In this document: piece after piece, positions 1 to 16,370 of the stretch
Position numbering within the stretch: position 1 is the first letter of the stretch
Layout of the letters: each line of letters begins with the position of its first letter
Source: an uncultured Clostridia bacterium
GTDB taxonomy: Bacteria; Acidobacteriota; Aminicenantia; UBA2199
Length of the DNA stretch: 64,000 bases
Direction of reading: 5' to 3'
Assembly (NCBI GenBank): GCA_964628035.1
Contig: CAZVPI010000007.1
Location: forward strand, 10,322 to 74,321
The notes under the pieces: model-generated
What the model was told of the DNA's origin: nothing
Database searches by the model: none
What the model saw: only the letters and a program-made list of their open reading frames with translations
Made by a program: the position numbers and the translations under genes

Positions 1-660
1 CAATGAGCCGTGGACCTTGTAAAGGCGAATGTGCTTCCTATGCTTGTAGATCGTCTTCAAAAGTCCGCGTTGGGGTACTTGTTCACGTATAAGCAAGGAT
101 TGATTCGCGGCCTCCCAATCAGTTCGCCGTTCTATGCCTCCACAAAATCCGCTTGTATAGTAGATGCCGACGTAATCGCAGGCATGCTCAAACAGCGTGT
201 CATAGTTTGGCGTCAGAACATGAAGGATGCGGTCTCCTTCAGGAAGTGTTTCGACCAGACGCTTGAAGAAGTTTGTTGCGGGCCAAGTTACGTCACCGTT
301 AGCGATTCGTAGGGCATACTCACGATCAAAGGCTGAGACAAACCGCCCGGTGGCTACGGTGATCTTTTGCAGAAGCACAGGATCGGTGACATTATCAAGA
401 GCAGATTCCAAGCTGACGCCTTTCTGAAGTGACTTAAGAACCTTTGCCCATTGCTTCTTTTGGCCAGACGAATGGGAGTCGGCAATAACGCTCTGGGCAA
501 GCTCATCTTTCAAAGATTGCATGCCGAAGTGGGGATCAAGCGCACATGACATTCCCGTTCCAAAAAACACAAACGGTTTATTGCGGAAGAAATCGCGTAT
601 GGTATTGATCGCAACGTCTTCGGTCATTTCTGGACGTGTTGATGATTGGGAGCTACCCAT
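1..660 (-). CDS. SIR2_2-family (Sir2-like NADase-type) domain protein, N-terminal about 220 aa; gene continues beyond window start
   Basis: Minus-strand translation from ATG at 660..658 reads MGSSQSSTRPEMTEDVAINTIRDFFRNKPFVFFGTGMSCALDP...LTPNYDTLFEHA...RLYKVHGS. FFGTGMS matches the Rossmann GAGxS motif, TPNYDTLFEHA matches the SIR2_2 ITTNYDxLLExA motif, and HGS is the C-terminal motif. It is not in the ORF track because it runs off the window edge. The start is 1 nt after the rmuC stop. Confidence 0.6.
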   Translation of the reverse strand, partial: MGSSQSSTRPEMTEDVAINTIRDFFRNKPFVFFGTGMSCALDPHFGMQSLKDELAQSVIADSHSSGQKKQWAKVLKSLQKGVSLESALDNVTDPVLLQKITVATGRFVSAFDREYALRIANGDVTWPATNFFKRLVETLPEGDRILHVLTPNYDTLFEHACDYVGIYYTSGFCGGIERRTDWEAANQSLLIREQVPQRGLLKTIYKHRKHIRLYKVHGSL

Positions 661-661
661 C

Positions 662-2134
662 CTATCCTCCCTCATCCGTTAGTACAGGCACATCTGAGCC
701 AATCTGTTCTGTTCCGAGGGTATCGATTAAATCCGTCGACAGCTCCGGTGCCGACAGCACACGTGGCGTTGTCTCGACAGGTGATAGAGGCGGAATCTCG
801 TTTCCAATCGCGGCCCCCAAGTCCTTGAACCTTCGAGCCGCAGGCAGAATCCTGACTTCCATCGAGCCAACCGCGCTGTTATATGCGGCGTTGGCTTTCT
901 CCAATCCCTTACCGATTTCCCCGATGTGCTCGGCCATGGTCTTCATGCGCTCATAGAGCTGCTTCCCGAGGTCGCTGATGACCTGGGCGTTCTTTGCGAC
1001 CTGTTCCTGACGCCAGCCATAGGCAATAGCACGCAAAAGCGCAATTAGTGTTGTTGGAGTCGATAAAACCACGCGCTTTTCCAACCCGTCTTCGATGAGG
1101 CTGTGGTCGGCATCCAACGCTGCGCCAAAAAATGATTCGCCTGGAATAAACATAATAACAAACTCAGGTGCTTTAGAAAATTGGCTCCAATACGCCTTCG
1201 ACGCAAGGGTATTCATGTGAGTTCGCACCTGAGCCGCATGTCGAGCCATCGCCGTCTTTCGCGTATCTTCCGACTCGGAAGCTATGGCGTCGAGGTACGC
1301 ATCTAGAGATACCTTTGCATCCACGACAATTTCTCTTTCGGAAGGAAGCCGAATGACGAGGTCGGGACGCTGGCGGCCTTCTTCAGTGCTTGCGGTAACC
1401 TGTTCGGTAAAATCACAGTGCTCGGACATCCCCGCCAACTCCACCACACGGCGAAGAGTCATTTCGCCCCACCGGCCTCTTACCTGGGGCTTTCGTAGTG
1501 CCGTAACAAGATTCGCAGTTTCTTTCTGCAGTTGTTGTTGACCCGCGGACAGTATCTTTAGATGCTCTGTAAGCCCCGAATAGGCATCTTGTCTATCCTT
1601 CTCGATTGTGCGTACATGTGCCTCAAATTTACTGATGGACTCTGACAGAGGCTTGACTAAACCTTGAATGGCTTCTTGACGTTTTCCAAGATCCCCCCTG
1701 GCATCCGTCAAAGCATTCTCAAGAGTTACCTTGGCTAATTTCAGGAAAGCCGTTGTGCTGTTGTTTAGAGTATCCCCAGCGAGTGCTTTAAAAGTATCCG
1801 TTAGCTTGCTTTTGGCTTCATTAAGAAAATTTCTTTCTTCTTGGAGATGCTGGACAGTTTCCGTCAATTGAGTTTCTGCTTTTACTCGCGCACTGCTTTC
1901 TTTTGTTAGTTGGTCTCTAATCCTGGACAAATCCTCAAAATTCTTTTGATTCTGTGCACGCAATTCGTTATTGATCCCTTCCAAACTCGAAACCCGTGTT
2001 TCAAAAGCGCTTGCTCTATGCTCCACATCACTAATTTTTTCTGAAAATTTCCTTGATACTCGATTTGATGCGATTACCCAAGTAAGAACTGCCCCAATTA
2101 AAAAACCAATTATTGCATAAAGAATAAAAAGCAT
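662..2134 (-). CDS. rmuC: DNA recombination protein RmuC family (N-terminal TM, coiled coil, C-terminal RmuC nuclease-like domain)
   Basis: 490-aa ORF. N-terminal hydrophobic helix, then a long coiled coil rich in Q/E/K, then the conserved RmuC C-terminal block (...[52 protein letters not shown]...). An AAGGAAGG RBS lies upstream of ATG 2134. Confidence 0.85.
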
Positions 2135-2322
2135 CGTTGCCCTTCCTTACATACTTATAATATGTTCTATAAATACACCAAATAATGAAGCAAAGACCTT
2201 TACAACAAGCGTTTAAGTTATTCATTCATTTATTACCACATTAATGTGATATTCATTTCTCTTCTATTGGTTCTCTTTAACAACTCGCCCCCTTTAAATA
2301 CACTCAATGTGATGGAATCCAC

Positions 2323-3552
2323 TTAATCACCTCGGTGATCACCAGATGGCCCCTTTGTGGCCCTTTCCCTTCCGCCAGACACTTGCTTTGCTCCTATGCG
2401 CTTCTTCATTCTAACAGACTCCGGCGGTTTGAAAGCGATCCCTTTTCGTTTCTGCAGCAGGGCTTGGGTCCGCTCGATCTCGGCAGCCAGTTCCTTTTCA
2501 TCGGGGAGGGCTGTCCGATACTCAGAAGCCATCACTTTATTCGGAAGTCCTTCCAACGCGTAGCGGGCAACGGCCGCGTCTTTCTGGGCGCAAAGAATCA
2601 GCCCCACGGGCGGATTTTCATCCTTACGGACCCAGTGTTCCTGCGCGTAGTTAAGATAAAGATGCATCTGTCCGGCGTCGGCGTAGGTGAATTTGCCGAT
2701 CTTCAAGTCGATAATCACCAGACATCGCAGGCGACGGTGGAAAAAGACCAGGTCCACCCGATACCATTCGTCCCCGATGCGCAGACGTTTCTGCCTGCCG
2801 ATGAAACAGAAGTCGCCGCCTAGCTCCAGGAGAAAAGATTCAAGGTGCCGGATAAGCGCCTCTTCCATGTCGGTTTCGGAGTATTCATCCTTGAGCCCGA
2901 GAAATTCCAGAAAATAAGGGTCCTTGATCTCCTCTTCGGGACGGATCCGATCCTTGACGCCGGCCTTCTCGCCCTTGATCAACATAGCGGCCTTGTTTCG
3001 GGATAGTGCCGTGCGTTCGTAGAACTGGGAATTGATCTGGCGATCGAGTTGCCGCACCGACCAACCGCCGCGCCGGGCTTCGGTTTCATAAAAACGCCTG
3101 GCATTTTCGTTCTTTACCGAAAGCAGCCGGACATATGCCGACCAAGGAAGAGAGAAGCAGGATGCGATGCTGGAAAGGGAAGATTCTGCAGACACTGTCT
3201 GCGGAATTTCAAGGCCATCCGATTCTGCGGATGTCGTCTGCGGAATCTGCCATGCGAGGTAGAACGCCTTTATTTGCCAGATATTGCGAACCGAAAAGCC
3301 CTTGCCGTAACGGGCGGACAAATCACCGGACAATCTTTCGATTAGTTCTTCACCATACCCCGCTCGCTTTTCTCCCCTTTGCTCAGTCTCCACAATTCGT
3401 CTTCCAATCAACCAGTAAGCGGCTGTCATCAGGCAATTTACCGAACGAGCCGCCGATCTCCTGGCCGCATCGATAACAGCGGAGATTTCGCCGAGGACGG
3501 AATCGTAATGTTCATCCAGCCGGGCGTCCGGTTTTATCGGCATTTTTGTCAC
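2323..3552 (-). CDS. YhcG/DUF1016-family PD-(D/E)xK nuclease
   Basis: 409 aa. A strong DUF1016 signature is present: DMEEALIRHLESFLLELGGDFCFIGRQKRLRIGDEWYRVDLVFFHRRLRCLVIIDLKIGKFTYADAGQMHLYLNYA, which contains a D...(I/V)DLK nuclease motif. Confidence 0.8.
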   Translation of the reverse strand: MTKMPIKPDARLDEHYDSVLGEISAVIDAARRSAARSVNCLMTAAYWLIGRRIVETEQRGEKRAGYGEELIERLSGDLSARYGKGFSVRNIWQIKAFYLAWQIPQTTSAESDGLEIPQTVSAESSLSSIASCFSLPWSAYVRLLSVKNENARRFYETEARRGGWSVRQLDRQINSQFYERTALSRNKAAMLIKGEKAGVKDRIRPEEEIKDPYFLEFLGLKDEYSETDMEEALIRHLESFLLELGGDFCFIGRQKRLRIGDEWYRVDLVFFHRRLRCLVIIDLKIGKFTYADAGQMHLYLNYAQEHWVRKDENPPVGLILCAQKDAAVARYALEGLPNKVMASEYRTALPDEKELAAEIERTQALLQKRKGIAFKPPESVRMKKRIGAKQVSGGRERATKGPSGDHRGD

Positions 3553-3607
3553 AGATCCCCCTTCCCGTCGAGCCGTCGTGCGTTCCGTGCTTGTTGTCTG
3601 AAGGTCA

Positions 3608-6600
3608 TCATTTCAATTTGCCTCCGTCAGCCATTCCATCCTCGAGCGACTTGGTCATAACATTGGCATTCAGCCAATAATGTTGGATCTTGACGACTTC
3701 CTGCCATGGGAACCTGGCCGGGTCCTTGATAGGATCAAGTAAGGTCGGCTGTTGCGAGCAATTGGTGACCACATAAAGCCAATAACAGTCACGGCGGTCC
3801 TGGGCTACCCGCCTTTCATTCGGGCTCAACAGGATGGCTCCACTGGATGCGCCGATGCCCTTGACTTCAATGAGCCGCAGTTCGCCGGAATTGATGTCCA
3901 GGCTGGTGATATCGTAGCCCAGGTTCTTTTCGTGAACGTCAAACACCTGGCGGCCCTGAGCTTTTTCATAATCTATCACCACATTCATCGCTTTGATTTC
4001 GGTCTCCTTGTTCTGGCGCAAATTACTAATCTCAGGATTTTCTCGTTCGGGATGCGGCAGGACAAGGATGCTGGCTATTCTTTCCACTCCTTGAAGGGAA
4101 AGCGATTTCTGGCGTTCAAGCTCCTCGCGTCGTCTTTCGCGGCGCGCCATGAGTTCAGCGTGTCGATTTTCCGCTTGCGACAAGCGACCGTCCGCTCCGA
4201 CAACCCCTTCATCTTTCTCTTCATTGGCCCTGCCGATCTCTTCATCGGCCCGTTGCAGCAGCTCGGTGAGGGAGAGATCCACGTGCTTTTCGATGCGCTT
4301 CACCTCGGCCAACCGCTCCTCGCGCACTTCATTCAAAAAAGGCTGGAGCGCATTGGCTTGCAACCAAGAGTCGGACTCGGGTTCATTGGCCATCGCTGGA
4401 ATTTCGCTTGGACGATCAGCAGGAATGAGATCATTGAGCATATTGGGTTCACGCAAGCAGGGTTCGGAATCCTTGGCTATTTCAACGGCGAAAAGCCGTT
4501 CGTGGACGATCTGCCCGAGTCCGTCCACAACGCGGGCGCGATAAAAATCGATGCGGCTGGGAATCGCGTGTTGCAAGGAATAAAAACAAGCCCCTTTCCC
4601 AAATACATCACCGGCCTTTTCGCAAGTAAATCTGCGCAACGCCTCAAAGAAGGGATGCCCGGGGGTGATCCATTCCAGGGTATTCTTTTCCGCAGTTTCA
4701 CGGTCGGTCGAACAGCGCGGGTATTTCGAAGCCAAGGCCGGCAATTTCCAATCCGGCTGGCGGTCGAACCGCTGTAGAACAGTTGGCAGGCGGGCTGGTT
4801 CAAAGGTGTGTGCTAGAGTGTCAATGACCTTCAGCTTCAACGGCACATAAGGGGCAGCCTCGATGATGAAGCGGGAGATGGTCTCGGGCACAACCCTTTT
4901 CTCCTGGGCCTTGGCGCGCCGTTCGAGCAACATGGCCAGGTTCAGCTTCTTGGAAGCCAGGCCCTCCAGTGCATTCTGACAGATGGCGCGAAAATGGCTC
5001 TCATCGACATTTTCAAGCAATTGATCTTCCAGATCGGCATCGCCCAGCTTTCCGGAATAGTAGTCGCGAAGCACCCTTTCGACATGGGTGACCGGGAGAA
5101 TCTCGCCGACGACATTAAAAACCGCATCGTCATCCAGGGCGTTGCGGATCTCCTGGAGCTTTTCCAAGAGACGCTGCAGGACCTTCCCCTCGATCGTGTT
5201 GGTCGCGACGAAGTTAAAGATCAGGCAGTCTTCCGTCTGTCCGTAACGATGGATGCGCCCCATGCGTTGTTCCAGGCGGTTGGGATTCCAGGGGATATCA
5301 TAGTTGAACATGATATGGCAGCATTGCAGGTTGATGCCTTCGCCGGCAGCCTCGGTGGCCACCAGGATCTGGATATCCCCTTGCCAGAATTGTTGCTCCG
5401 TATAGATGCGCGTGCCTGGCTCGTCCCGGGAGCCGGGTTTCATGCCGCCATGGATAAAACCCACCTTGAAGTTCCAGGATCGCAGCTTTTCAACGATGTA
5501 GTCGAGCGTGTCCTTGAATTCAGTGAACAAAAGAAGGCGCTTGTCCGGCTGATCAAAGAAGCCCTCCTGCTTCATCAACGATTTGAGTTTTGCTAATTTT
5601 GCCTCGGTATCAGAGATCTCGATATCTTTGGCCTTTTGCGCAAATTGGCGGAGTTCGGCGATCTCTTCGCGAACTTGCTCGGCATTGCCGGAGAGGGTAA
5701 TGGCTTCGAGAATCTGCTCAAGCCGTTCACGGTCATCCTCTTCCATCTCTTCGAGCTCTTCCGGATCAGGGAGGTCAGCCGGGGCTATGCGGATTAACTC
5801 CTGGGCTCGTTTCAGCCCATCCTCTAAGCGCCGAGCCCGGTTCTCCAGGCTATGCCGCATGGCGTACATACTGGATGCCAACCGGCGCTGATACAGGGCC
5901 ATCAAGAAACCGACCGCGCGAGCGCGCGGATCATCGCCTTGGGCGGCCGCCTTGGCACTCTGCCGCTTGACCATGCGCGTGATTTCGCAATAAAGTTCAC
6001 ATTCGGCGCCATCGATTTGAAAATCGACGGTTTGGGGGATACGCTTTTTGAAGATCTTTTCCGCCGCCCACGTACCATCCGCTTGCTGTTCGGGGAAATA
6101 GACCATGGCCTCCTTGGTACGGCGTAGATAAAACGGCGCACGCTTGCGTTCCATGGCTTCGTGGATGGAACGAACATCGGCATAGGCATCGGGATCCAAT
6201 AACTGCAGAAAACGGGTGAAATTCTCCGGATCGCCCTTATGGGGCGTCGCGGTCATGAGCAGCAAATGGTCCGTCGTATCGCGGAGCAACTCCCCGAGAG
6301 CGTAGCGAGCGGTTTTGCGCGCCGGCGGGGTCCAGGACATGTGGTGCGCCTCATCGATAACGATCAGGTCCCAATGAACCTGCTTCAATCCCGGCAAGAT
6401 GTCGGTACGCTTGGCCAGATCGAGCGAAGTAATAATTTTTTTCTGCTCCAGCCACTGGTTGACCCCGTATTGATCGCGGATTTCACTGCCTTTAATGACC
6501 ATGAACTTTTCAGCGAATTTTTCTTTCAACTCCCGCTGCCATTGGAAGGCGAGGTTGGCCGGGCATACGACCAATATTCGTTCGGCCAATCCCCGGAGTT

Positions 6601-7051
6601 GGAGTTCGCGAATCAGCAGACCGGCCATGATGGTCTTTCCCGCTCCAGCATCATCGGCAAGCAGAAAGCGAACTTGGGGAAGCTTGAGAAGATAATCGTA
6701 AACCGCTTCCAGTTGGTGCGGGAGCGGATCCACCCGGGAGATCGAAAGCCCGAAATAGGGATCGAATTCCCAGGCAATGCCAAGCGAATAGGCCTGCAAG
6801 CCCAAGCGAAGCAGTTCTCCATCGCCATCATAGGTGAAACCTGTACTCTGGACAGCAAGAGTTTGTAGATCTTTTTCTGAAAGCGTGACCTTGCGAAATT
6901 TTTCCGAGTTTATTCCTACAAGCCCCAAGGTCATCCCGCCGGAGGGATCGGCCTGAACCGTCTCCACACGCATGGGCTCATTGAAGAGAGAACCTGAAAT
7001 GACACATCCAACTCGAATTGAATCGTGTGACTTACTCATCACTGTCACCAT
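3608..7051 (-). CDS. SNF2-family helicase (DExx box, HELICc) with C-terminal DUF3883-like PD-(D/E)xK nuclease domain
   Basis: 1147 aa. Walker A LLADDAGAGKTIMAG and DExH box LIVIDEAHH are present. A helicase C-terminal block (...QRMGRIHRYGQ) follows. The C-terminal about 120 aa read ...DVHEKNLGYDITSLDINSGELRLIEVKGIGASSGAILLSPNERRVAQDRRDCYWLYVVTNC, which contains D...ExK. The start overlaps the upstream DUF2075 gene by 1 nt. Confidence 0.8.
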   Translation of the reverse strand: MVTVMSKSHDSIRVGCVISGSLFNEPMRVETVQADPSGGMTLGLVGINSEKFRKVTLSEKDLQTLAVQSTGFTYDGDGELLRLGLQAYSLGIAWEFDPYFGLSISRVDPLPHQLEAVYDYLLKLPQVRFLLADDAGAGKTIMAGLLIRELQLRGLAERILVVCPANLAFQWQRELKEKFAEKFMVIKGSEIRDQYGVNQWLEQKKIITSLDLAKRTDILPGLKQVHWDLIVIDEAHHMSWTPPARKTARYALGELLRDTTDHLLLMTATPHKGDPENFTRFLQLLDPDAYADVRSIHEAMERKRAPFYLRRTKEAMVYFPEQQADGTWAAEKIFKKRIPQTVDFQIDGAECELYCEITRMVKRQSAKAAAQGDDPRARAVGFLMALYQRRLASSMYAMRHSLENRARRLEDGLKRAQELIRIAPADLPDPEELEEMEEDDRERLEQILEAITLSGNAEQVREEIAELRQFAQKAKDIEISDTEAKLAKLKSLMKQEGFFDQPDKRLLLFTEFKDTLDYIVEKLRSWNFKVGFIHGGMKPGSRDEPGTRIYTEQQFWQGDIQILVATEAAGEGINLQCCHIMFNYDIPWNPNRLEQRMGRIHRYGQTEDCLIFNFVATNTIEGKVLQRLLEKLQEIRNALDDDAVFNVVGEILPVTHVERVLRDYYSGKLGDADLEDQLLENVDESHFRAICQNALEGLASKKLNLAMLLERRAKAQEKRVVPETISRFIIEAAPYVPLKLKVIDTLAHTFEPARLPTVLQRFDRQPDWKLPALASKYPRCSTDRETAEKNTLEWITPGHPFFEALRRFTCEKAGDVFGKGACFYSLQHAIPSRIDFYRARVVDGLGQIVHERLFAVEIAKDSEPCLREPNMLNDLIPADRPSEIPAMANEPESDSWLQANALQPFLNEVREERLAEVKRIEKHVDLSLTELLQRADEEIGRANEEKDEGVVGADGRLSQAENRHAELMARRERRREELERQKSLSLQGVERIASILVLPHPERENPEISNLRQNKETEIKAMNVVIDYEKAQGRQVFDVHEKNLGYDITSLDINSGELRLIEVKGIGASSGAILLSPNERRVAQDRRDCYWLYVVTNCSQQPTLLDPIKDPARFPWQEVVKIQHYWLNANVMTKSLEDGMADGGKLK

Positions 7052-8913
7052 TACTCCATCCTACTCTTGAAAAATCGTTCGGTTTCCTTGTCTTGGAAAT
7101 AAACATAGCACCCTTTCAGGCCACGTGAAAGCAGAACTCGGTACGTATTTTTTACTAAACTTAGGAAATTGTCCTTGCTCTTTTTCACTACTGGGTCGGC
7201 GGAGCAGGCCTTGTCGCCGATCCATTTTTGGGCATCGAAAGAATAGCAGAGGTCCTTGCCAAAGATTATCCCGACGTAGTCGAACTCGAAGCCCTGGGCC
7301 GTGTAGATGCAGCCGACCTGATCTATGCCCCCGGGATCATTGGCCCAAAGAGTGGCTTTGGGAATACCCTTAGCAAGGCGGGTAGCCTCCGGCTTGGCAT
7401 TCCAGGGGCGATGAAAGTCATCGATCTTCACGTCGTCGACCAGGGTCCCATCGGGACGGGCATCGGACCAGGACCAGCAAAAACCGGCGGCCAAGCGGGC
7501 GCTGAAGCCCTCTACCGCCTTGGCCCGGATCGCCTTATCCAGTTCTTCAGGCGACGGTAATATCCTGAAATCGAACTCCTCCTCCCTGGTGTTCCAAAGC
7601 ACGTTGGCCGTGCGGTGGATCCCTAGAGTATTTTCTATCCAGGCGACGAAACCCTGTGAGCCGGCGCAGCGAAACTGGATGTCGAGAGTGAACTCTTCGA
7701 TATTGGTCATGAGCGCGTTCCCGGCCTTGACGATGTAGTCGGTCGACCCTATCTCACCGGGTCGCACAACTTGGTCGTTATCAATGAAGAAGACGCAGAC
7801 CCGCGCCGCTTTTAAAAGCTCCTCCACCTGGGGTTTGTTCGATTTCTTCTGGAAGCGTGTATTACTAGTTTCGCGGATGCGGTGCGACTCGTCGCAGATT
7901 AGAACATCGACCTCGTCGGGCTGGGCGCCGGCATAACTGTTGAAATACTTGAATTGAACACTGCCTCGCCTGCCGATTACATTGCGCAGAGTCTCGGTAA
8001 AGGCCCGAGATCCGGTGGCGTAATGGGCGTTGAATCCCTTGCGGAGCAATTCAGCCATCAGATTGATGGCAATCACCGACTTTCCTGTGCCCGGGCCACC
8101 CCGGACAATAATCACATATTTTTGCCGCATGTGAAAACCGCGGTCCACGATGCCCAGGATCTTGTCGAATACGACACGCTGCTCGTCGAGAAGAATATAC
8201 TCAGCCTTGCCCTCGATCACACCGGCCACATGGTCCATCAGTTTTTTGCTGGGGCGGTACTTGCTCTCCTCGACCCGGCGCAAGACTTCCATCCCATTCC
8301 CTTTCTTGAGGCGCCGATCCAGGTATGCGCAGATGGAGTCGAAATCGTCTGCAGTAAAGACGGGAGAAGATGCGATAAGAGAGTCAAACTTTGACGCGAA
8401 AAGGACATCCTTTGGTTCCGGCGCATAGTTATGCAGATAAGCGCAGGAATGCAGGTCAACTGGATTGTCGTCAGCATAAAAAGCCGTGTGCGTATCCTTA
8501 AGATATTGTTTGTAATAATCAACCTGGGCCGAAGGATGCAGCACATCTGTGTATCCTCCGGCAAGGATAGTGGACAGTTCGTTGTCGCCAATGGCTTCCC
8601 GGCATTTCCCCCACTGCTTGAGTTCAACGATGACCGCATTGTCCATATCGTCTTCATTCCTGCCGCAGACCATACAATCCAGCCTTTTCGAGCTCAAGGG
8701 AAGTTGGTATTCAAGCAGAATGCCATGATCGACCAATCCCGCGTGTTGGATAACGTCCTTCATCCTTATGAGCGAGTTGTTCCAGGAGCGGATCTCGGCC
8801 TCAGACGGGTTGTATCGGAAATGCTCGAAAAAGGAGCGCCGCAATTTTTCCGAGATCTGGTTGCGAACCGTGTCCTCGATGAAATTCTTAGAATTCCCGG
8901 CGTAAAGCCTCAT
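7051..8913 (-). CDS. DUF2075-family (Schlafen-like) P-loop ATPase/helicase with N-terminal PD-(D/E)xK-like nuclease domain
   Basis: 620 aa. The N-terminal region has D...ELK (RLDCMVCG...NAVIVELKQW). Walker A is IIVRGGPGTGKSVIAINL and Walker B/DExH is VLICDESHRI. The C-terminal DUF2075 region (FVAWIENTL..., CIYTAQGFEFDYVGIIFG) follows. It overlaps the MazG-like gene by 4 nt and the SNF2 gene by 1 nt. Confidence 0.8.
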   Translation of the reverse strand: MRLYAGNSKNFIEDTVRNQISEKLRRSFFEHFRYNPSEAEIRSWNNSLIRMKDVIQHAGLVDHGILLEYQLPLSSKRLDCMVCGRNEDDMDNAVIVELKQWGKCREAIGDNELSTILAGGYTDVLHPSAQVDYYKQYLKDTHTAFYADDNPVDLHSCAYLHNYAPEPKDVLFASKFDSLIASSPVFTADDFDSICAYLDRRLKKGNGMEVLRRVEESKYRPSKKLMDHVAGVIEGKAEYILLDEQRVVFDKILGIVDRGFHMRQKYVIIVRGGPGTGKSVIAINLMAELLRKGFNAHYATGSRAFTETLRNVIGRRGSVQFKYFNSYAGAQPDEVDVLICDESHRIRETSNTRFQKKSNKPQVEELLKAARVCVFFIDNDQVVRPGEIGSTDYIVKAGNALMTNIEEFTLDIQFRCAGSQGFVAWIENTLGIHRTANVLWNTREEEFDFRILPSPEELDKAIRAKAVEGFSARLAAGFCWSWSDARPDGTLVDDVKIDDFHRPWNAKPEATRLAKGIPKATLWANDPGGIDQVGCIYTAQGFEFDYVGIIFGKDLCYSFDAQKWIGDKACSADPVVKKSKDNFLSLVKNTYRVLLSRGLKGCYVYFQDKETERFFKSRME

Positions 8914-9278
8914 TTGAATTCAGTATATTTCTTGGCCGAACCCTTAGCCTTATCGACAGGGTATCGGACTTCATTATGACCGATTTTTTTCCGAATCGCC
9001 TTCTCGATATCTATCTTGGCCTCATGAGCAAAAAGCATGGAAAAGATTAGGATATCGGCAATTTCAGAGGCAAGCCTCTCCCTTTTCTCCTTTGTGATCT
9101 TCCTAGATTCCTGAGGGGTCTTCCAGAGGAAATGTTCCAAGAGCTCTCCTGCCTCTATTGAAATCGCTTCCGCCAGATTCTTCGGATCATGAAACTGCGC
9201 CCAATCACGACGGTCACGAAAAACCAGGATCGTCTCCATTAAATCCCCAGGCATCTTCATTTCATGCCCCCCATCCAT
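8910..9278 (-). CDS. MazG-like all-alpha NTP pyrophosphohydrolase (start may be the internal METILVF at about 9239)
   Basis: The EAGELLEHFLWK and ASEIADILIFSMLFA motifs (E-x-x-E...E-x-x-D metal-binding helices) are typical of MazG/YpjD-like NTP-PPases. The protein is 110-122 aa. It is the first gene of a three-gene overlapping operon. Confidence 0.7.
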   Translation of the reverse strand: MDGGHEMKMPGDLMETILVFRDRRDWAQFHDPKNLAEAISIEAGELLEHFLWKTPQESRKITKEKRERLASEIADILIFSMLFAHEAKIDIEKAIRKKIGHNEVRYPVDKAKGSAKKYTEFK

Positions 9279-9320
9279 CTATTTGAAATCCACTGTTTCA
9301 GGCTAGCTAATTTTAAAAAA

Positions 9321-9349
9321 CGCAGCATTCAATGTCAACCCCAATATTT
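9321..9349 (-). promoter_or_regulatory. sigma70-like promoter TTGACA-N17-TAAAAT upstream of the MazG/DUF2075/SNF2 operon
   Basis: The minus-strand sequence reads TTGACAttgaatgctgcgtttttTAAAAT, with the -35 at 9349..9344 and the -10 at 9326..9321. It sits about 40 nt upstream of the MazG-like start in an AT-rich intergenic region. Confidence 0.35.
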
Positions 9350-9566
9350 TCCTTTTTTTGCCCTGATATAGCCAAGTTCAGATATTTGAATGAGAGAAAA
9401 TAGGGAAAAATGTGATCCCTTCGAAATACGAAGCCAGAGGTTCGACGTCCAAGGGAATTGGGGTCAGGTCTTGAAATGACAGATCCTTCATCGTCCCTAT
9501 TCATGTTTCCGCAGGGCCAAGCTGATGCTCGAATAATGCATCCCCAGATAATCGCCGATTTCACGC

Positions 9567-9860
9567 ATGGTCTATCCTGCCCTCAACATAGGCCCGGTAA
9601 AGAAACATGAGGGGCGGGTCTTGAACACGTTCATCCATACCATCGCCCACCAGATCGGCGTCGGCATGCTGAAGCTCCTGGGAACGGTTTTCGCCTCCAC
9701 CCGCTTCCCGGCCGACCTGGCCGATCCCCTCGGCTACCTGGCCGTGCTGACCCTGTTCGCCGTGCTGCTGACCCTGGCCAAGAAGATCGCCTGGATCGTG
9801 CTGGCCGTGGGCTGGGGATTCATCGTCATCAGGCTGTTGATGATCATCTTCAAGATCTAG
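9567..9860 (+). CDS. small membrane protein, two TM helices (true start possibly MLKLLG at about 9669)
   Basis: The ORF track shows a 97-aa ORF. The C-terminal two-thirds are hydrophobic (LGYLAVLTLFAVLLTLA, IAWIVLAVGWGFIVIRLLMIIF). It lies at the low-GC/high-GC junction and I do not recognise the family. Confidence 0.35.
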   Translation: MVYPALNIGPVKKHEGRVLNTFIHTIAHQIGVGMLKLLGTVFASTRFPADLADPLGYLAVLTLFAVLLTLAKKIAWIVLAVGWGFIVIRLLMIIFKI

Positions 9861-9861
9861 A

Positions 9862-10011
9862 GACGTTAGACATTAGCCGTTAGACGGTAGACGAGAGAAC
9901 GAGCACGAGACATTAGACGTTAGACGTCAGCAAGAGAAAGCAAGTGAAAAAGGAGGGGAGTCGCTCTACTTAATGCGTTTCCTTGTCACTCGTCACTCTT
10001 CACTTGTCACC
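9862..10011. repeat. modular intergenic repeat: TAGACGT-type tandem units, a GAAAGCAAGTGAAAAAGGAGG box, then a GTCACTC-type array
   Basis: agacgttagacattagccgttagacggtagacgag...gacattagacgttagacgtcagc is followed by cttgtcactcgtcactcttcacttgtcacc. The same modules recur in at least 18 other intergenic regions. Confidence 0.7.
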
Positions 10012-10023
10012 AAAGTTCGCCTG

Positions 10024-10506
10024 TTAAATGAACAACGTGAACTTGGACTCCGAGGCGTCGGCGATGAACGAGGCGACGCCGCCGATCGCGACGCCGTCGA
10101 TCAGGTCCTCCTTCTTGATCTCCATGACGTTCATGCTCATCTCGCAGGCGGTGAGCTTGACGCCGAGGTCCTGCGCCTGCTTGAGCAGCTGGGGCAGGCT
10201 GGTGACGTTGTGGGCCTTCATCATCTTCTTGAACATCCAGCGGCCCAGGCCGCCGAAGTTGAACTGGGAGGGGCCCAGGCGGTCGATGCCGCCGCGGTTC
10301 AGCAACCCCAGCATGCGGCCCATCAGCCCCTTGCCGGTCAGGTTGCCCTTCTGGATGGCCTTCAGCCCCCAGAAGGTGAAGAACATGGAGACCTGCATGT
10401 CGAAGGCGGCGGCGCCGGTGGCGATGATGAAGGCGCCCATCACCTTGTCCATGTCGCCGCTCATGACCACCAGGCTCGCTTTCTCAGGCGTTTGCGCGTC
10501 GCTCAT
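10024..10506 (-). CDS. dsrE: DsrE/DsrF-like sulfur-relay family protein
   Basis: 160 aa, reading MSDAQTPEKASLVVMSGDMDKVMGAFIIATGAAA...TACEMSMNVMEI. This is a DsrE-fold protein with a conserved Cys, and it is the last gene of the tusA-hdr operon. Confidence 0.7.
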   Translation of the reverse strand: MSDAQTPEKASLVVMSGDMDKVMGAFIIATGAAAFDMQVSMFFTFWGLKAIQKGNLTGKGLMGRMLGLLNRGGIDRLGPSQFNFGGLGRWMFKKMMKAHNVTSLPQLLKQAQDLGVKLTACEMSMNVMEIKKEDLIDGVAIGGVASFIADASESKFTLFI

Positions 10507-11622: not shown

Positions 11623-11897
11623 TTCTCCCCGGCCAGCGAGTAGCGGTGGAAGCCCTCGCCGTCGGCCTTCTCCGAGGCCCTGACCCGGCCGTAGCGCACG
11701 AAGCCCATCACCCACCAGGTGACCTGGGGCTCGGGGGCGCCCAGCTCGCGCGCCAGCTCGGGCAGGGTCAACGGCCCGCGGGCCGCCAGCAGCTTCAGGA
11801 CCCGGCCGCGGACGGCGAATTCCTGGCGGGCGGTCTCGCGCCCGCGCCCGAGAATGGCGACGCTCTCGGGAAAGCGCTCGCGGCTGCTGTCATTCAT
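11619..11897 (-). CDS. small winged-helix-like protein (putative regulator), conserved hypothetical
   Basis: 92 aa. The central segment VLKLLAARGPLTLPELARELGAPEPQVTWWVMGFVRYGRV looks like a helix-turn-helix. It overlaps both the hdrA end and the qmoC-like start. Confidence 0.4.
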   Translation of the reverse strand: MNDSSRERFPESVAILGRGRETARQEFAVRGRVLKLLAARGPLTLPELARELGAPEPQVTWWVMGFVRYGRVRASEKADGEGFHRYSLAGEK

Positions 11898-13662
11898 TCT
11901 CGGCCTCCCGGGCCAGCACGTCGATCATGGCCTCGATTTGTTCGTCGCTGTAGCCCTTCATCTGGGTGGCGTCGAGCGGGCAGGGGGGCAGGCAGGCGCC
12001 GCAGCCCTTGCACAGGGCCTCGACCACCTGGGCCACCTCCTTGTCCCCATAGGCGGCCTTCTCGATGGCGCCGTAGGGGCAGGCGGGCTGGCACTTGCCG
12101 CACCAGGTGCATGCATCGGCGCGGACATAGGCCACGAAAGGCTGCAGGTCGACATAGCCCTTGATCAGCAGCGCCGCGGCCTTGGCCACCGCCGCCAGCG
12201 AGGAGACGACGCTCTCGCCGGCGTTCTTCGGACCCTGGCAGGCGCCGGCGATATAGACGCCGTCGATGACCGTCTCCACCGGCCGCAGCTTGGGGTGGAT
12301 CTCGTTGTAGAAGCGGTCGGCGCCCAGCGGCAGCTTCAGCACCTTCGTCAGCCCGTCGTTGTCCCGCGCCGTCATGCCGGTGACCAGCACCACCAGGTCG
12401 GCCGCCAGCGCCACTTCCTCGCCGCCGGTGAGCAGGTCCTGGACGACCACGCGCAGGGAATCGCCGTCGCGCTCGACGCGCGGCGGCCGCTCCTCGTGGA
12501 AGCGCAGGAAGACCGAGCCCGACTTGCCCGCCTCCTCGTAGATCGTCTCGAACTTGCCGTAGGTGCGCATGTCGCGGTAGAGGTGGTAGCTGCGCACGCC
12601 GGGGAATTTCCTGGAGGCCAGCAGCGCCAGGTGGCAGGCGGCGCTGCAGCAATAGCGCGAGCACCAGCGGTTGAGGTCTTCGCCCTCGCCGTTCTGGCGG
12701 CTGCCGACGCAGTAGATGAAGGCGACCGAGCGGACTTCCCGGCCCTCGTGGAACAGCCGGCCGTCCCCCTCTTGCAGGAGTTTCTCGAACTGCGAGAGGG
12801 TGACCACCCCGGGCTGCCCGAAGGCGTACTCGCCCGGCTTGGGCCCGTACTCGGCGAAGCCGGTGGCCACCAGGATGGCGCCGACCCGGATGCGCACCGT
12901 TTCCTCCGCCGCGCCCCCTCGCCGGGAGCCTTCAGGGCCGGCGGGCCGGATGCGGATCGCCAGGTCAAACTCGCCGATATGGCCGTTTTTTCCCGCCAGT
13001 TCGGCGTTGCGGAACAGGGTGATGCCCGGCCGCTTGCGAACCTCCTCCAGCAGGGAGGCGACCAGCTCGGAGCCGACCTTGCCGGCCGGGAACATCTCGC
13101 CCAGCGCCGCGACCTGGCCTCCGGCGCGCGCCTCACGCTCAACGACGAAGACCTCAACGCCCAGGTCGGCCAGCTCGACGGCGGCGCGCAGGCCGGCGAT
13201 GCCGGCGCCCACGACCAGCACCCGCTTCACCGAGGTGACGCGGATCGGTTTCAGGGCCTCCTGGCGCAGGGCCTTCTCGACGCCGGCGCCCACCAGGTTG
13301 GCCGCCTTGCAGGTGGCGCCCGGGTGGTCGTCGGAATGGGCCCAGGAGCACTGCTCGCGGATGTTGACCTGCACGTACTGGAACGGGTTGAGCCCGGCGC
13401 GTGCCGACAGGTTGCGGAAAGTGGTCAGGTGCAGCTTGGGCGAGCAGGAGGCGACCACCAGGCCGTCAAGCCCCTGCTCCTGGATGTCCTTCATCATCTC
13501 GTTCTGCGAGGCGTCGGAGCAGGTGAACATCGAGGTCCTGGCCACGGTGACGCCGTATTGCTCCTCGATGCGCCTGCGCACCTCCTCGACGTCGATGTGG
13601 TCGGAGATGTTGCCGCCGCAATGGCAGATGTAGACGCCGATCCTCCTCTTCTTCTCTTCCAT
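11890..13662 (-). CDS. hdrA: heterodisulfide reductase subunit A (HdrA) flavoprotein
   Basis: True start MEEKKRRIGVYICHCGGNISD is at about 13662; the track ORF carries a spurious N-terminal extension. The HdrA N-terminal 4-Cys motif is present (IGVYICHCG...VVASCSPKLH...NIREQCSWAH). The FAD fold shows VLVVGAGIAGLRAA, and C-terminal ferredoxin motifs are CTWCGKCQPACP and CKGCGACLPPCP. Confidence 0.85.
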   Translation of the reverse strand: MEEKKRRIGVYICHCGGNISDHIDVEEVRRRIEEQYGVTVARTSMFTCSDASQNEMMKDIQEQGLDGLVVASCSPKLHLTTFRNLSARAGLNPFQYVQVNIREQCSWAHSDDHPGATCKAANLVGAGVEKALRQEALKPIRVTSVKRVLVVGAGIAGLRAAVELADLGVEVFVVEREARAGGQVAALGEMFPAGKVGSELVASLLEEVRKRPGITLFRNAELAGKNGHIGEFDLAIRIRPAGPEGSRRGGAAEETVRIRVGAILVATGFAEYGPKPGEYAFGQPGVVTLSQFEKLLQEGDGRLFHEGREVRSVAFIYCVGSRQNGEGEDLNRWCSRYCCSAACHLALLASRKFPGVRSYHLYRDMRTYGKFETIYEEAGKSGSVFLRFHEERPPRVERDGDSLRVVVQDLLTGGEEVALAADLVVLVTGMTARDNDGLTKVLKLPLGADRFYNEIHPKLRPVETVIDGVYIAGACQGPKNAGESVVSSLAAVAKAAALLIKGYVDLQPFVAYVRADACTWCGKCQPACPYGAIEKAAYGDKEVAQVVEALCKGCGACLPPCPLDATQMKGYSDEQIEAMIDVLAREAENE

Positions 13663-16370
13663 CAGGACTTCCTCTTCATGCGCTCGATGTAGGCCGCCGC
13701 CTGGGCCGCCGCCGCCCCGGCGCTCAGGATGGAATCGGGGATGTCCAGCGGCCCGGTGGCGGTGCCGGCGCTGAACACCCCGGGGATGGAGGTGCGCGCC
13801 GGGTCGACCTGCTTCCCGGGCTGGGCTACGAACAGCGTCTCGTCGAAGTCCGGCCCGCCGCCGGCGAACAGCCCGCGGCAGCCGTCGCCGGCCACGATGC
13901 CCGTCGACAGCACCACCAGGTCGTGCTCGGCCTCGCGCACGGCGCCGTGGTCGTCGATGTCCTCGTAGCGCACCTTCAGGTTGCCGTTGCCGGCCTCGCT
14001 GACCTTGGCCACCTTGCCCTTGACAAAGCGCACGCCCATGGCCCGGGTTTGCTCGAAGAATTCGTCGTAGCCCTTGCCGAAGGCGCGGATGTCGATGTAG
14101 TAGATCGTGATGTCGGCCACCGGCAGCGCCCCCAGCAGCAGCTGCGCCTGCTTGAGCGAGTACATGCAGCAGACGCGCGAGCAGATGGGATTGTTCTGGG
14201 TGCGGTCGCGCGAGCCGACGCAGAAGACATAGGCGATGTTGGCCGGCGCCTTGCCGTCGCCGGGCCGCAGCACATGGTTGTAGGGGCGGGTGGGCGCCAC
14301 CAGGCGGTCCATCTGCATGGCGGTGACGACGTTGGCGTACTTGCCGTAGCCGAATGTCTCCATGAGTTCGGCCGGGAAAAGGCGGAAGCCAGTGGCCAGC
14401 ACCACGGCTCCGGCGCCGACCTCCTCGACCTGCTCGCGCTGGTCGAAGTCGATGGCGTCGGCCGGGCAGGCGCGCTTGCATTCCTGGCACTCGCTGCAGA
14501 TGCCGCAATTGAGGCAGTTGGCGGCACTGGCCAGGGCCTCCTCCTCGCTGAACGGCAGGTCGACCTCGGCGAAATCCTTGATGCGTTCGCGCGGGTGGCG
14601 CTCCGACTTCTCCACCCTGCGGGCCGGGAATTCGGCCTGCCGCGCCAGCACATCCTTTTTGTCGACGACCGGCAGCCGCGGGTCGAACTCGACATCCGCC
14701 AGCGTCTCGCCGCGCAGGAAGCGGTCGATGAAGAAGGCCGCCCGCTTGCCCAGCCCCATGGCCTGGACGATCATCGCCGGACCGGTCACGGCGTCGCCTG
14801 CGGCGAACAGCCAGGGCCGGTCGGACTGCAGCGTGCGCTCGTCGGCCCGTACCGTTCCGTCGCGGTTGAGCGGCAGCTCGCGCCGCAGGGCCGCCGCCTC
14901 GGCGCTCAAGCCGATGGCGACGATGGCCAGGTCGAAATCAGCGGTGAACTCCGAGCCGGGAACGGGCACCGTGCGGCGGCGGCCGCCGTTGCCTTCCGCG
15001 ACCGGCTTCATGCGCACGCTGCGCACCCGCCGCAGGCGGCCGTTCTCCTGCTCGAAGGCCACGGGATTGCCGAGAAACTCCAGGACCACCCCCTCGGCCT
15101 CGGCCGCCGCGACCTCCTCGCCGGAGGCCGGCATCTCGGTTCGCGTGCGGCGGTACTGCAGGACGACCCTGGCCGCCCCCAGCCGCAGCGCCGTGCGCGC
15201 GGCGTCCACGGCCACGTTGCCGCCGCCGACCACCAGCGCGCTCTTGCCGCGCAGGTCGAGCTTCTGGCCGCAGAGGACCTCGGCCAAAAACTCGATGCCG
15301 CTGAAGACCTCCGGCAGCTCCTCCCCGGGGACCATGAGCCTCCTGGGCTTGGGCGTGCCGACGGCGACGAGGACGGCGTCGTAACCGCTGTCCTTGAGCG
15401 CGCTGAGCGAATCCACGCGAGCGCTGGCGCGGATCTCCACGCCCAGGGCGGTCACGTTGCGGATGTCGCGGTCGACGACGTCCTTGGGCAGCCGGTAGTC
15501 GGGCAGGCTGGAGCGCAGCATGCCGCCCGGCTCTCGGTCGGCCTCGAAGACCGTGACCGGGTATCCCGAGCGTGCCAGGAAGTAGGCCGCGGTCAGGCCG
15601 GCCGGGCCCGAGCCGACGACCGCCACCTTCCTGTCCCGCGTATTTTCCATGGCGCCGTAGTCGGGCTCGGGATGGCGGGCGTAATACCAGTCGGCGACGA
15701 AGCGCTTCAGGTGGCGGATGTGCGGGGCGGCGCCGATCTCCTCCCGCGAGCACTCGCGCTGGCAGAAGGCATAGCAGGCGCGGCCTAGGGTGCCGACCAG
15801 CGGCGCGTCTTCCAGCACCAGCCGGAACGCTTTTTCAAACTCGCCCTGGCGGATGAGCGAGATGTAGCCGTTGGCCTTGATGCCCGCCGGGCAGGCGTAG
15901 GTGCAGGGCGAGGTGCCGGCGCGGTCGATCACGGCCTTCTTGGGCACCGCCTGGGGATAGGCGATGTGGGCCACGCGCCGCGAGACGAGGTTCTCGTTGT
16001 ATTCGTCGGGGACGGTGACGGTGCAGGCCTTCTCGCAGTCCTGGCAGCCGGTGCACTTGGCGAAGTCAACGAAGGCCGGCTTGCGCGCCACGCGGGCGCG
16101 GAAGCCGCCGGCCCCGTCGCGGCGCACCTCGCGCACCTCGCTGTAGACGCGCAGGTCGATGTTGGCGTGGCTGGCCGCCAGCGCCATCTTGGGGGTGGAG
16201 ATGCAGGAGGCGCAGTCGAGCGTGGGGAAGACCTTGCTGAGCAGGATCATCTTGCCGCCGATGCTCGGCTCCTTTTCCACCAGCAGCACCTTGTAGCCCA
16301 TGTCGCCCAGGCTGACCGCCGCCTCCATGCCGGCGATGCCGGCGCCGAGGACCATCACGTCGTAGTCCAT
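13662..16370 (-). CDS. HdrL-like large HdrA homologue with inserted GltD/NfnB-like NAD(P)H-binding domain
   Basis: 902 aa. The N-terminal HdrA FAD fold reads MDYDVMVLGAGIAGMEAA. A ferredoxin motif CTGCQDCEKAC is present. The inserted GltD/NfnB-type domain reads KVAVVGSGPAGLTAAYFLARSGYPVTVFEADREPGGMLRSSLPDYRLPKDVV...ALVVGGGNVAVDAAR. The later motif CLNCGICSECQECKRACP is followed by the HdrA C-terminal part. Both its start and its stop form ATGA-type overlaps with neighbours. Confidence 0.8.
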   Translation of the reverse strand: MDYDVMVLGAGIAGMEAAVSLGDMGYKVLLVEKEPSIGGKMILLSKVFPTLDCASCISTPKMALAASHANIDLRVYSEVREVRRDGAGGFRARVARKPAFVDFAKCTGCQDCEKACTVTVPDEYNENLVSRRVAHIAYPQAVPKKAVIDRAGTSPCTYACPAGIKANGYISLIRQGEFEKAFRLVLEDAPLVGTLGRACYAFCQRECSREEIGAAPHIRHLKRFVADWYYARHPEPDYGAMENTRDRKVAVVGSGPAGLTAAYFLARSGYPVTVFEADREPGGMLRSSLPDYRLPKDVVDRDIRNVTALGVEIRASARVDSLSALKDSGYDAVLVAVGTPKPRRLMVPGEELPEVFSGIEFLAEVLCGQKLDLRGKSALVVGGGNVAVDAARTALRLGAARVVLQYRRTRTEMPASGEEVAAAEAEGVVLEFLGNPVAFEQENGRLRRVRSVRMKPVAEGNGGRRRTVPVPGSEFTADFDLAIVAIGLSAEAAALRRELPLNRDGTVRADERTLQSDRPWLFAAGDAVTGPAMIVQAMGLGKRAAFFIDRFLRGETLADVEFDPRLPVVDKKDVLARQAEFPARRVEKSERHPRERIKDFAEVDLPFSEEEALASAANCLNCGICSECQECKRACPADAIDFDQREQVEEVGAGAVVLATGFRLFPAELMETFGYGKYANVVTAMQMDRLVAPTRPYNHVLRPGDGKAPANIAYVFCVGSRDRTQNNPICSRVCCMYSLKQAQLLLGALPVADITIYYIDIRAFGKGYDEFFEQTRAMGVRFVKGKVAKVSEAGNGNLKVRYEDIDDHGAVREAEHDLVVLSTGIVAGDGCRGLFAGGGPDFDETLFVAQPGKQVDPARTSIPGVFSAGTATGPLDIPDSILSAGAAAAQAAAYIERMKRKS

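Follow-up and report, generated by a model that had tools for sequence, protein, structure and literature searches.

Putative SIR2-HerA and RmuC modules nested in an Hma-type operon of a low-GC defence island

The window analysed here is a stretch of 64,000 nt of contig CAZVPI010000007.1 (assembly GCA_964628035.1). It begins with two closely packed genes on the minus strand, rmuC and a gene encoding a SIR2_2-family protein, the latter running off the window edge. The original prediction regarded these two genes as a translationally coupled module in which RmuC would act as the sensor and the SIR2 protein as an NAD+-depleting effector of abortive infection. Once the locus is extended, the SIR2 gene is found to be directly followed by a herA gene, and the putative SIR2-HerA pair lies, together with rmuC and other candidate defence genes, within an operon of the Hma type, also known as the Type-1 bacteriophage exclusion (BREX)-related (BR) type.

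The locus was extended by an exact-sequence look-up of RmuC, which returned ten metagenome contigs (L001-L010). As these contigs differ from the window by 0-1 mismatches in the shared 2134 nt, and by 0-10 where up to 10 kb on the opposite side can be compared, they legitimately extend it. The complete SIR2 gene and the genes from herA to hmaC come from contigs that match the shared 2134 nt without any mismatch. The genes lie on one strand in the order MazG-like, Schlafen-type (DUF2075) helicase, hmaA, yhcG, rmuC, SIR2, herA, hmaB, AbiJ-like and hmaC (Table 1). The gap is 1 nt between rmuC and SIR2, 2 nt between SIR2 and herA, and 4 nt between the DUF1156 gene and the AbiJ-like gene. Statements about neighbouring genes, here and in the loci compared below, are based on tblastn or Pfam matches combined with the precomputed gene calls of the contigs.

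Table 1. Features of the completed locus. Positions are those of the window unless a contig is named; aa, amino acids; GC, guanine plus cytosine content.
Feature	Position	Strand	Size	Remarks
SIR2_2 gene, 5' part	1..660	minus	first 220 of 372 codons	complete gene at L001:11475-12593
rmuC/SIR2 junction	658..673	minus		read from sequence: Shine-Dalgarno-like GAGGGAGGA (673..665) within the rmuC 3' end, TAG (664..662), spacer base 661, ATG (660..658)
rmuC	662..2134	minus	490 aa	Pfam RmuC PF02646, E=2.4e-105
yhcG/rmuC spacer	2135..2322		188 nt	AT-rich (32% GC); sole sizeable gap in the operon; possible internal promoter region
YhcG/DUF1016 PD-(D/E)xK nuclease gene	2323..3552	minus		PADLOC candidate PDC-S02; between hmaA and rmuC; start uncertain (3552, 3543 or 3429)
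hmaA	3608..7051	minus		SNF2-rel_dom, Helicase_C and C-terminal NOV_C/DUF3883 nuclease (E=3.7e-22); PADLOC HmaA, E=8.8e-176
Schlafen group-3/DUF2075-type helicase gene	7051..8913	minus	620 aa	stop overlaps hmaA start; inside the low-GC island
MazG-like gene	8910..9278	minus	122 aa	overlaps start of Schlafen-type helicase gene; final island gene ahead of the GC jump
herA	L001:12596-14335 (outside the window)	same strand as SIR2	579 aa	PADLOC HerA PDLC04105, E=2e-227 over the full model; DUF87, E=1e-26
hmaB	L001:14393-17374 (outside the window)	co-oriented	993 aa	DUF1156 N6-adenine methylase; HmaB, E=2e-112; DUF1156, E=3e-23
AbiJ-like gene	L001:17379-18308 (outside the window)	co-oriented	309 aa	AbiJ_NTD4/DUF7014/Abi_C; between hmaB and hmaC
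hmaC	L001:18330-21095 (outside the window)	co-oriented	921 aa	DUF499 ATPase; HmaC, E=7e-90; DUF499, E=1e-13

The single base between the rmuC stop codon and the SIR2 start codon was correctly described in the original prediction. At the junction, the minus strand reads ...GAGGGAGGATAGGATGGGT..., with GGAGG (670..666) located 5 nt upstream of the SIR2 ATG. The frame that starts at this ATG is open down to position 1, where it leaves the window, and the choice of start codon is backed by the many homologues that are likewise 372 aa long and whose alignment begins at residue 1. The proposed translational coupling is real at this junction, but SIR2 is not special in this respect. In homologous loci, rmuC is coupled to whichever gene comes next, typically with an overlap of 4-8 nt, so such coupling is generic to this operon type. 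The TAG-G-ATG arrangement is a mark of close packing within the operon and of joint expression, not of a dedicated sensor-effector pair.

The truncated SIR2 product scores 21.9 bits against Pfam SIR2_2, below the cut-off of 24.5, because it is cut off by the window edge; the PADLOC SIR2 model PDLC04086 already recognises it (E=7.7e-71). The complete protein matches SIR2_2 with E=4e-12 and PDLC04086 with E=1e-141 over model positions 2-361 of 361, so the family assignment made from the fragment holds when examined with hidden Markov models. The three motifs claimed for it are present as FFGTGMS, TPNYDTLFEHA and HGS. N152, D154 and H217 are invariant among 32 homologues (60-76% identity) and are equivalent to N163, D165 and H212 of the Paenibacillus SIR2 (PsSIR2), which are the putative catalytic residues of that protein (PMC11472057). 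The complete protein has only one SIR2_2 match, and the segment beyond the window adds no further domain; what comes next is HerA.

The six cysteines of the SIR2 protein are scattered (39, 161, 173, 268, 304 and 331) and form no CxxC, therefore no Zn ribbon is present. The AlphaFold2 model has a mean predicted local distance difference test score (pLDDT) of 81.8, and the top 39 Foldseek matches in the PDB are all SIR2 chains of SIR2-HerA entries (E. coli, PsSIR2 and 8YHX entries, including one SIR2-only entry, 8sxx). The best template-modelling scores (TM-scores) are about 0.6 over about 373 aligned columns, which is the full length, and DSR2 appears only from rank 40. By sequence, the protein is 14-19% identical to the solved SIR2 proteins, with phmmer E-values of about 1e-8 covering residues 130-309 only. 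The invariant N/D/H residues, the missing Zn-ribbon cysteines and the SIR2-HerA-like fold of the model support the earlier view of this protein as a defence-type sirtuin, predicted to be an NADase effector. A class III protein deacetylase was rejected on the grounds that CxxC Zn-ribbon pairs are lacking and that defence SIR2 proteins rank first in the fold search. Thoeris ThsA, DSR1-DSR2 and prokaryotic Argonaute (pAgo)-associated SIR2 were rejected as well, given the length of 372 aa, the single SIR2_2 match, the lack of any extra domain and the HerA neighbour.

The HerA protein has an intact Walker A motif (GSTGSGKS). Its nearest solved structures are the HerA proteins of HerA-DUF4297 systems (9C1M, E=6e-82; 8XAU, 5e-70), followed by those of the Paenibacillus SIR2-HerA (8WIV, 2e-60) and of E. 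coli Nezha (8J4U, 2e-31). Judged by every defining feature that can be read from sequence, the SIR2 gene and the herA behind it together make up a SIR2-HerA anti-phage pair.

The rmuC product comprises an N-terminal hydrophobic helix (residues 1-23; the mean hydropathy of residues 1-19 is 2.36), a long helical or coiled-coil stretch and an RmuC PD-(D/E)xK nuclease domain (155-442), in which D258, D272 and K274 are invariant columns among homologues. This agrees with the coiled coil and the nuclease-like C-terminal domain attributed to it originally. Its alignment to NCBIfam NF007686, the equivalog model of E. coli RmuC, covers model positions 5-437 of 475 and scores 185.2 bits, the cut-off being 810, and the protein is about 29% identical to E. 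coli RmuC. PADLOC gives only the reverse transcriptase (RT)-associated RmuC model PDLC03812 (E=3e-62) and weak coiled-coil matches. A tblastn search against plasmids did not find close relatives of RmuC (best 50% identity) and gave no informative context.

The surrounding operon is, in every defining feature that sequence can reveal, an Hma / Type-1 BREX-related operon. The possibility that RmuC stands in for a nuclease-less HmaA was rejected, as HmaA retains its NOV_C domain with the D...ExK motif visible. The gap between hmaB and hmaC appears as a second cargo slot, occupied by the AbiJ-like gene here and by a DUF8426 gene in L129.

Positions 1-10,000 of the window have a GC of 51.8%, against 65.8% for the remaining 54 kb. 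The jump occurs near 9.9-10 kb, with the MazG-like gene (8910-9278) on its low-GC side and a DsrE-like gene (10024-10506) on the other. The rmuC gene itself has a GC of 48.7% and a GC at third codon positions (GC3) of 0.47. Within the island, GC3 varies from 0.27 to 0.65 (AbiJ-like 0.27, HmaB 0.41, RmuC 0.47, SIR2 0.50, HerA 0.59, HmaA 0.63), which points to a mosaic of pieces of mixed origin. Relatives of RmuC at 67-76% identity are named from Acidobacteriota, Desulfobacterota, Bipolaricaulota, Nitrospirae, Bacillota, Planctomycetes and Eisenbacteria. Judged by its composition, the region is a horizontally acquired, foreign defence island of about 19 kb, of which the first 9.3 kb or so of the window are one end. 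The rmuC gene thus lies outside a core-genome setting, as the original prediction required. Its low GC relative to the host, its relatives across phyla, its equivalog score far under the cut-off and its identity of about 29% to the E. coli protein all argue against a core rmuC, and a vertically inherited core copy is unlikely.

The proposed RmuC-SIR2 module was examined from both sides. Starting from SIR2, with one genome per species, 34 loci were obtained, 31 of them at 49-75% identity to the window SIR2 and three more distant at 25-27%. HerA follows SIR2 in all 32 species loci whose contig extends past SIR2. In contrast, RmuC lies ahead of SIR2 in one of the 34 (L032, a 1.7-kb Planctomycetaceae contig). 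The 30 loci with 2.7 kb or more available upstream of SIR2 all lack it there. Among five close metagenomic SIR2 lineages (73-76% identity), two have an RmuC that overlaps the SIR2 start by 8 nt (L045/46 and L047/48), and the other three (L136-L138) do not have RmuC ahead of SIR2. More than 30 species carry the same SIR2-HerA type, with HerA 72-91% identical, and no RmuC alongside. It can be found right after hmaA, again without RmuC, at about 35 nt in L015, L034 and L037 and at about 1 kb in L016. These four loci and L136 share the RmuC-free order HmaA-SIR2-HerA-HmaB(-HmaC), other genes sitting after hmaA in L136. L137 and L138, the loci of SIR2 relatives P0007 and P0009, have DUF1156 fragments on both sides of SIR2-HerA, and transposase genes are near in L138; they look like degraded or rearranged Hma loci that still hold the SIR2-HerA cargo.

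Starting from RmuC, a metagenome scan gave 80 loci at 48-81% identity to the window RmuC, none of which contains this SIR2-HerA type. RmuC lies between or beside hmaA and hmaB in 14 of the 80, and the only recurrent neighbours are HmaB (12 loci), the HmaA/SNF2-type helicase family (10 loci, a count that takes in distant Hma-like members) and OLD-family proteins (5 loci). The three closest relatives examined (P0134, 82% identity; P0122, 80%; P0124, 76%, from an Acidobacteriota metagenome-assembled genome, MAG) all exhibit the order HmaA, variable gene, RmuC, cargo, HmaB, optional variable gene and HmaC, the cargo being OLD or AAA_13. The slot after RmuC holds an OLD-family AAA_15+TOPRIM protein (sometimes behind a small KTSC gene), an AAA_13 ATP-binding cassette (ABC) ATPase, a DUF3644 protein with a restriction-endonuclease-like domain, or SIR2-HerA. 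L069 and L070 have no cargo, and RmuC overlaps hmaB by 4 nt. In L053 (5264-8342), the slot between RmuC and hmaB holds an unrelated pair of SIR2_2 (405 aa) and HerA (628 aa, 30% identical), an independent capture of the same kind of cargo.

The identities of the RmuC proteins show the same separation. The window RmuC shares 74-80% identity with the RmuCs of loci in which the cargo is OLD or AAA_13 and HmaA is 73-78% identical to that of the window, and just 71-73% with the RmuCs adjoining the most similar SIR2. RmuC therefore follows the Hma backbone and not the cargo. In a neighbour-joining tree, which is rough and carries no support values, Hma-linked RmuCs are concentrated in the clade of the window RmuC, and RmuCs beside MreB/NlpC or major facilitator superfamily (MFS) genes lie elsewhere.

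The RmuC-SIR2 pairing is thus real but rare, and either partner is mostly found without the other. The conserved adjacency that the original prediction sought does recur, in L032, L045/46 and L047/48, because both genes occupy the same gap between hmaA and hmaB; however, HerA is the constant partner of SIR2. A two-gene module with RmuC as sensor and SIR2 as effector is not supported. RmuC and SIR2-HerA are optional occupants of the hmaA-hmaB gap. We consider it quite probable that the locus is a composite of known systems, in which a SIR2-HerA pair is nested in an Hma / Type-1 BREX-related operon, along with a Shield-like RmuC accessory nuclease that tracks Hma.

Several observations weigh against this interpretation. 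Homologues of RmuC at 57-64% identity are found in housekeeping settings, beside MreB, NlpC/P60 or MFS transporters, and as their identity is barely lower, the window RmuC does not belong to a strongly divergent, defence-only family. The adjacency of RmuC and SIR2 recurs in the three lineages mentioned above with coupled or overlapping open reading frames, and the RmuC of L053 precedes an unrelated SIR2-HerA. Given this recurrence, RmuC may to some extent cooperate functionally with SIR2-HerA. In most Hma loci, moreover, the module behind RmuC is based on an NTPase, which could mean that RmuC works with its downstream neighbour.

This last point can be extended to a phylum-spanning subtype of Hma, in which a membrane-anchored RmuC, at a set place between hmaA and hmaB, would be a functional fourth component that marks the cargo slot and is coupled to, and cooperates with, an exchangeable NTPase module of abortive infection (OLD, AAA_13 or SIR2-HerA). 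The downstream module could then, for instance, be triggered by DNA ends or nicks made by RmuC, and the RmuC-SIR2-HerA of the window would be one case of a general back-up cassette of RmuC plus an NTPase, a cassette not known from earlier descriptions. We regard this subtype as unlikely.

Slightly less likely is a cassette of this kind operating inside as well as outside Hma, with RmuC as the constant nuclease half and OLD, AAA_13 or SIR2-HerA as the swappable NTPase half with which it cooperates. The gene coupled to the rmuC stop codon in Hma loci is nearly always such an NTPase module, RmuCs of a clade outside Hma also precede ABC ATPases or OLD-like proteins (L095, L097, L103, L106 and L107), and OLD-type ABC ATPases paired with PD-(D/E)xK nucleases have been described (PMC12839542). 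Nevertheless, hmaB comes right after RmuC in L069 and L070, without any NTPase, and in L050, L076 and L079 RmuC and OLD lie 204-254 nt apart. OLD also carries its own TOPRIM nuclease, SIR2-HerA is autonomous elsewhere, and the RmuC-domain protein ShdA alone suffices for defence.

A three-component system of RmuC, SIR2 and HerA, with RmuC as an added sensor or second effector, such as a nuclease at the membrane that the HerA ring recruits or activates, appears quite improbable. In its favour, RmuC and SIR2 adjoin, with a gap of 1 nt or an overlap of 8 nt, in the window, L032, L045/46 and L047/48, and the L053 arrangement could be a convergence. The window HerA is also nearest to the HerA of HerA-DUF4297, whose activated nuclease is, according to the literature, a homologue of Cap4, an effector of the cyclic-oligonucleotide-based anti-phage signalling system (CBASS). 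However, this SIR2-HerA type is found without RmuC in the many species mentioned above, including Hma loci in which SIR2 starts some 35 nt after hmaA, it is absent from the RmuC-anchored loci, and RmuC identity tracks HmaA and not SIR2. In addition, published SIR2-HerA systems work as two genes (PMC11472057, PMC11514289, PMC13434337).

That the gene is the ordinary housekeeping rmuC of the host, involved in recombination and inversion control, and adjoins SIR2 by chance is extremely unlikely: its architecture spans the whole E. coli model and some homologues do sit in housekeeping neighbourhoods, but the gene lies co-oriented in a tightly packed operon between hmaA and hmaB, departs in GC and GC3 from a host at about 66% GC, is found at the same position in 14 or more metagenome loci as well as in each of the three closest relatives examined, has relatives at 67-76% identity across six or more phyla, and reaches 185 bits of the 810 set as the equivalog cut-off.

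Under the composite interpretation, the Hma operon would be the carrier backbone of the island, formed by the HmaA helicase-nuclease, the HmaB DUF1156 N6-methylase and the HmaC DUF499 ATPase. The methylase would mark self DNA, the DUF499 ATPase would scan or sense, and the helicase-nuclease would restrict foreign DNA, a scheme drawn from PMC11232893 and PMC12839542. Three self-contained auxiliary modules would lie between hmaA and hmaB, namely the YhcG-type nuclease, the membrane-anchored coiled-coil RmuC nuclease and the SIR2-HerA pair. The working partner of SIR2 would be HerA and not RmuC. By analogy with the solved SIR2-HerA systems (PMC11472057, PMC11514289, PMC13434337), the two proteins would assemble into a large complex in which phage cues switch on the nicking and ATPase activities of HerA and release the NADase of SIR2, so that NAD+ depletion would arrest the infected cell. 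RmuC presumably acts, as a protein, independently of SIR2-HerA. Judging from ShdA of Shield and from the RmuC proteins found within DISARM and Type I restriction-modification operons of Pseudomonas, it is most likely a further nuclease that degrades DNA.

Other features of the locus concern its head and its border. The MazG-like gene and the Schlafen group-3/DUF2075 helicase gene (7051-9278, minus strand) could be a further two-gene defence module heading the operon; PADLOC gives only weak PDC-S41, AbiO and Nhi matches for this pair. A promoter and terminator scan of positions 1-4000 gave counts not above those of shuffled sequences, and a minus-strand consensus promoter was not found in the 188-nt spacer. 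At the island border, neither an Rfam scan of the window nor tRNA scans of the window, L001, L002, L129 and L133 found anything, and no tRNA, integrase or repeat marks the border. On the host side, large FAD/NAD(P)-binding proteins with 4Fe-4S domains are encoded at 11890-16370 (minus strand) beside DsrE-like and Fe-S proteins, and this Fe-S/FAD gene set suggests an anaerobe of roughly 66% GC.

RmuC genes are also found in other arrangements. A separate RmuC clade outside Hma (about 60% identity) includes the loci L095, L097, L103, L106 and L107. In the first three, the gene after RmuC encodes an ABC-type ATPase of 849-961 aa, behind which L103 also has a PIN gene; in the other two, it encodes an OLD-like protein. 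The RmuC mini-island of L103 lies among ordinary metabolic genes (M20 peptidase, phosphoribosyltransferase and PrpF). L086 (5728-15416) encodes, in order, an IrrE/helix-turn-helix (HTH) regulator, RmuC, proteins of 273, 185 and 1152 aa, and an Eco57I/MmeI-type methylase, which resembles an RmuC set ahead of a BREX-type operon. L054 and L057 show the order ARPP-1, WYL/WCX regulator, RmuC (75-77% identity), small nucleotidyltransferase and 1280-aa SNF2/NOV_C helicase (32% identical to HmaA); RmuC is thus upstream of a distant Hma-like helicase, in a gene order unlike that of the window.

SIR2-HerA is reportedly the same as Nezha, a two-gene abortive-infection system said to go back to Gao (2020) and Garb (2022), with structures 8J4U, 8SU9, 8SUB, 8WLD and 8YHX. 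The window pair resembles it in having a SIR2_2 protein of about 370 aa with a co-oriented HerA/DUF87 ATPase no more than 3 nt behind it, an intact N-x-D...H and Walker A, and full-length matches to the PADLOC models. It differs in being very divergent in sequence (the SIR2 identities given above), in having a HerA that is nearer to HerA-DUF4297 than to E. coli Nezha, and in that this subtype is often nested in an Hma operon and does not stand alone.

The Hma system was reportedly described by Payne (2021). It has also been described as a Type-1, DUF499-centred BR system (PMC12839542). The window operon is alike in its SNF2 helicase with a C-terminal PD-(D/E)xK (NOV_C) domain, its DUF1156 N6-methylase and its DUF499 ATPase, all co-oriented, and in its embedded auxiliary effectors. 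Auxiliary or back-up effectors of the PD-(D/E)xK, HNH, OLD/TOPRIM, HEPN, PIN and Schlafen types are known from BREX/BR loci (PMC12839542), and in Halomonas, Septu occupies the hmaA-hmaB gap (PMC11232893). RmuC and SIR2 are not named in the parts of the text and supplements of the BREX/BR survey that were available, whose PD-(D/E)xK category may nevertheless include RmuC, and YhcG has no match in the accessible part of its supplements (PMC12839542). What sets the window locus apart is that it stacks three to four nested modules (YhcG, RmuC, SIR2-HerA and AbiJ-like).

Housekeeping RmuC (E. coli YigN) shares with the window RmuC the overall length, the domain order and nearly the whole NCBIfam model, but not the sequence (the identity and equivalog score given above) or the setting in a foreign, low-GC defence operon. 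ShdA, the RmuC-domain protein of Shield, provides by itself phage defence and DNA degradation in vitro, and ShdA relatives or RmuC genes have been found embedded in DISARM-like and Type I restriction-modification operons, in reports restricted to Pseudomonas (PMC10270631, PMC11090510). The window RmuC is likened to ShdA by architecture (N-terminal membrane helix, coiled coil and RmuC nuclease domain) and by context (a restriction-modification-like operon in a defence island), and not by sequence placement within the ShdA clade.

The proposed new RmuC-SIR2 NADase system is therefore not there, and the locus instead shows how restriction-like operons carry second-line defences: one Hma / Type-1 BREX-related operon appears to host two nucleases, YhcG and RmuC, along with a complete SIR2-HerA pair and an AbiJ-like gene. 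SIR2-HerA and Hma are already catalogued systems, and the embedding of effectors in BREX/BR loci is already published, so the news is incremental. First, metagenomes and MAGs from many phyla contain the lineage of the window RmuC, which has a fixed place in Hma operons, whereas reports of RmuC in restriction-like operons concern Pseudomonas only. Second, the gap between hmaA and hmaB repeatedly harbours one particular SIR2-HerA subtype. The two findings bear on the co-regulation of first-line (restriction) and back-up (abortive) immunity.

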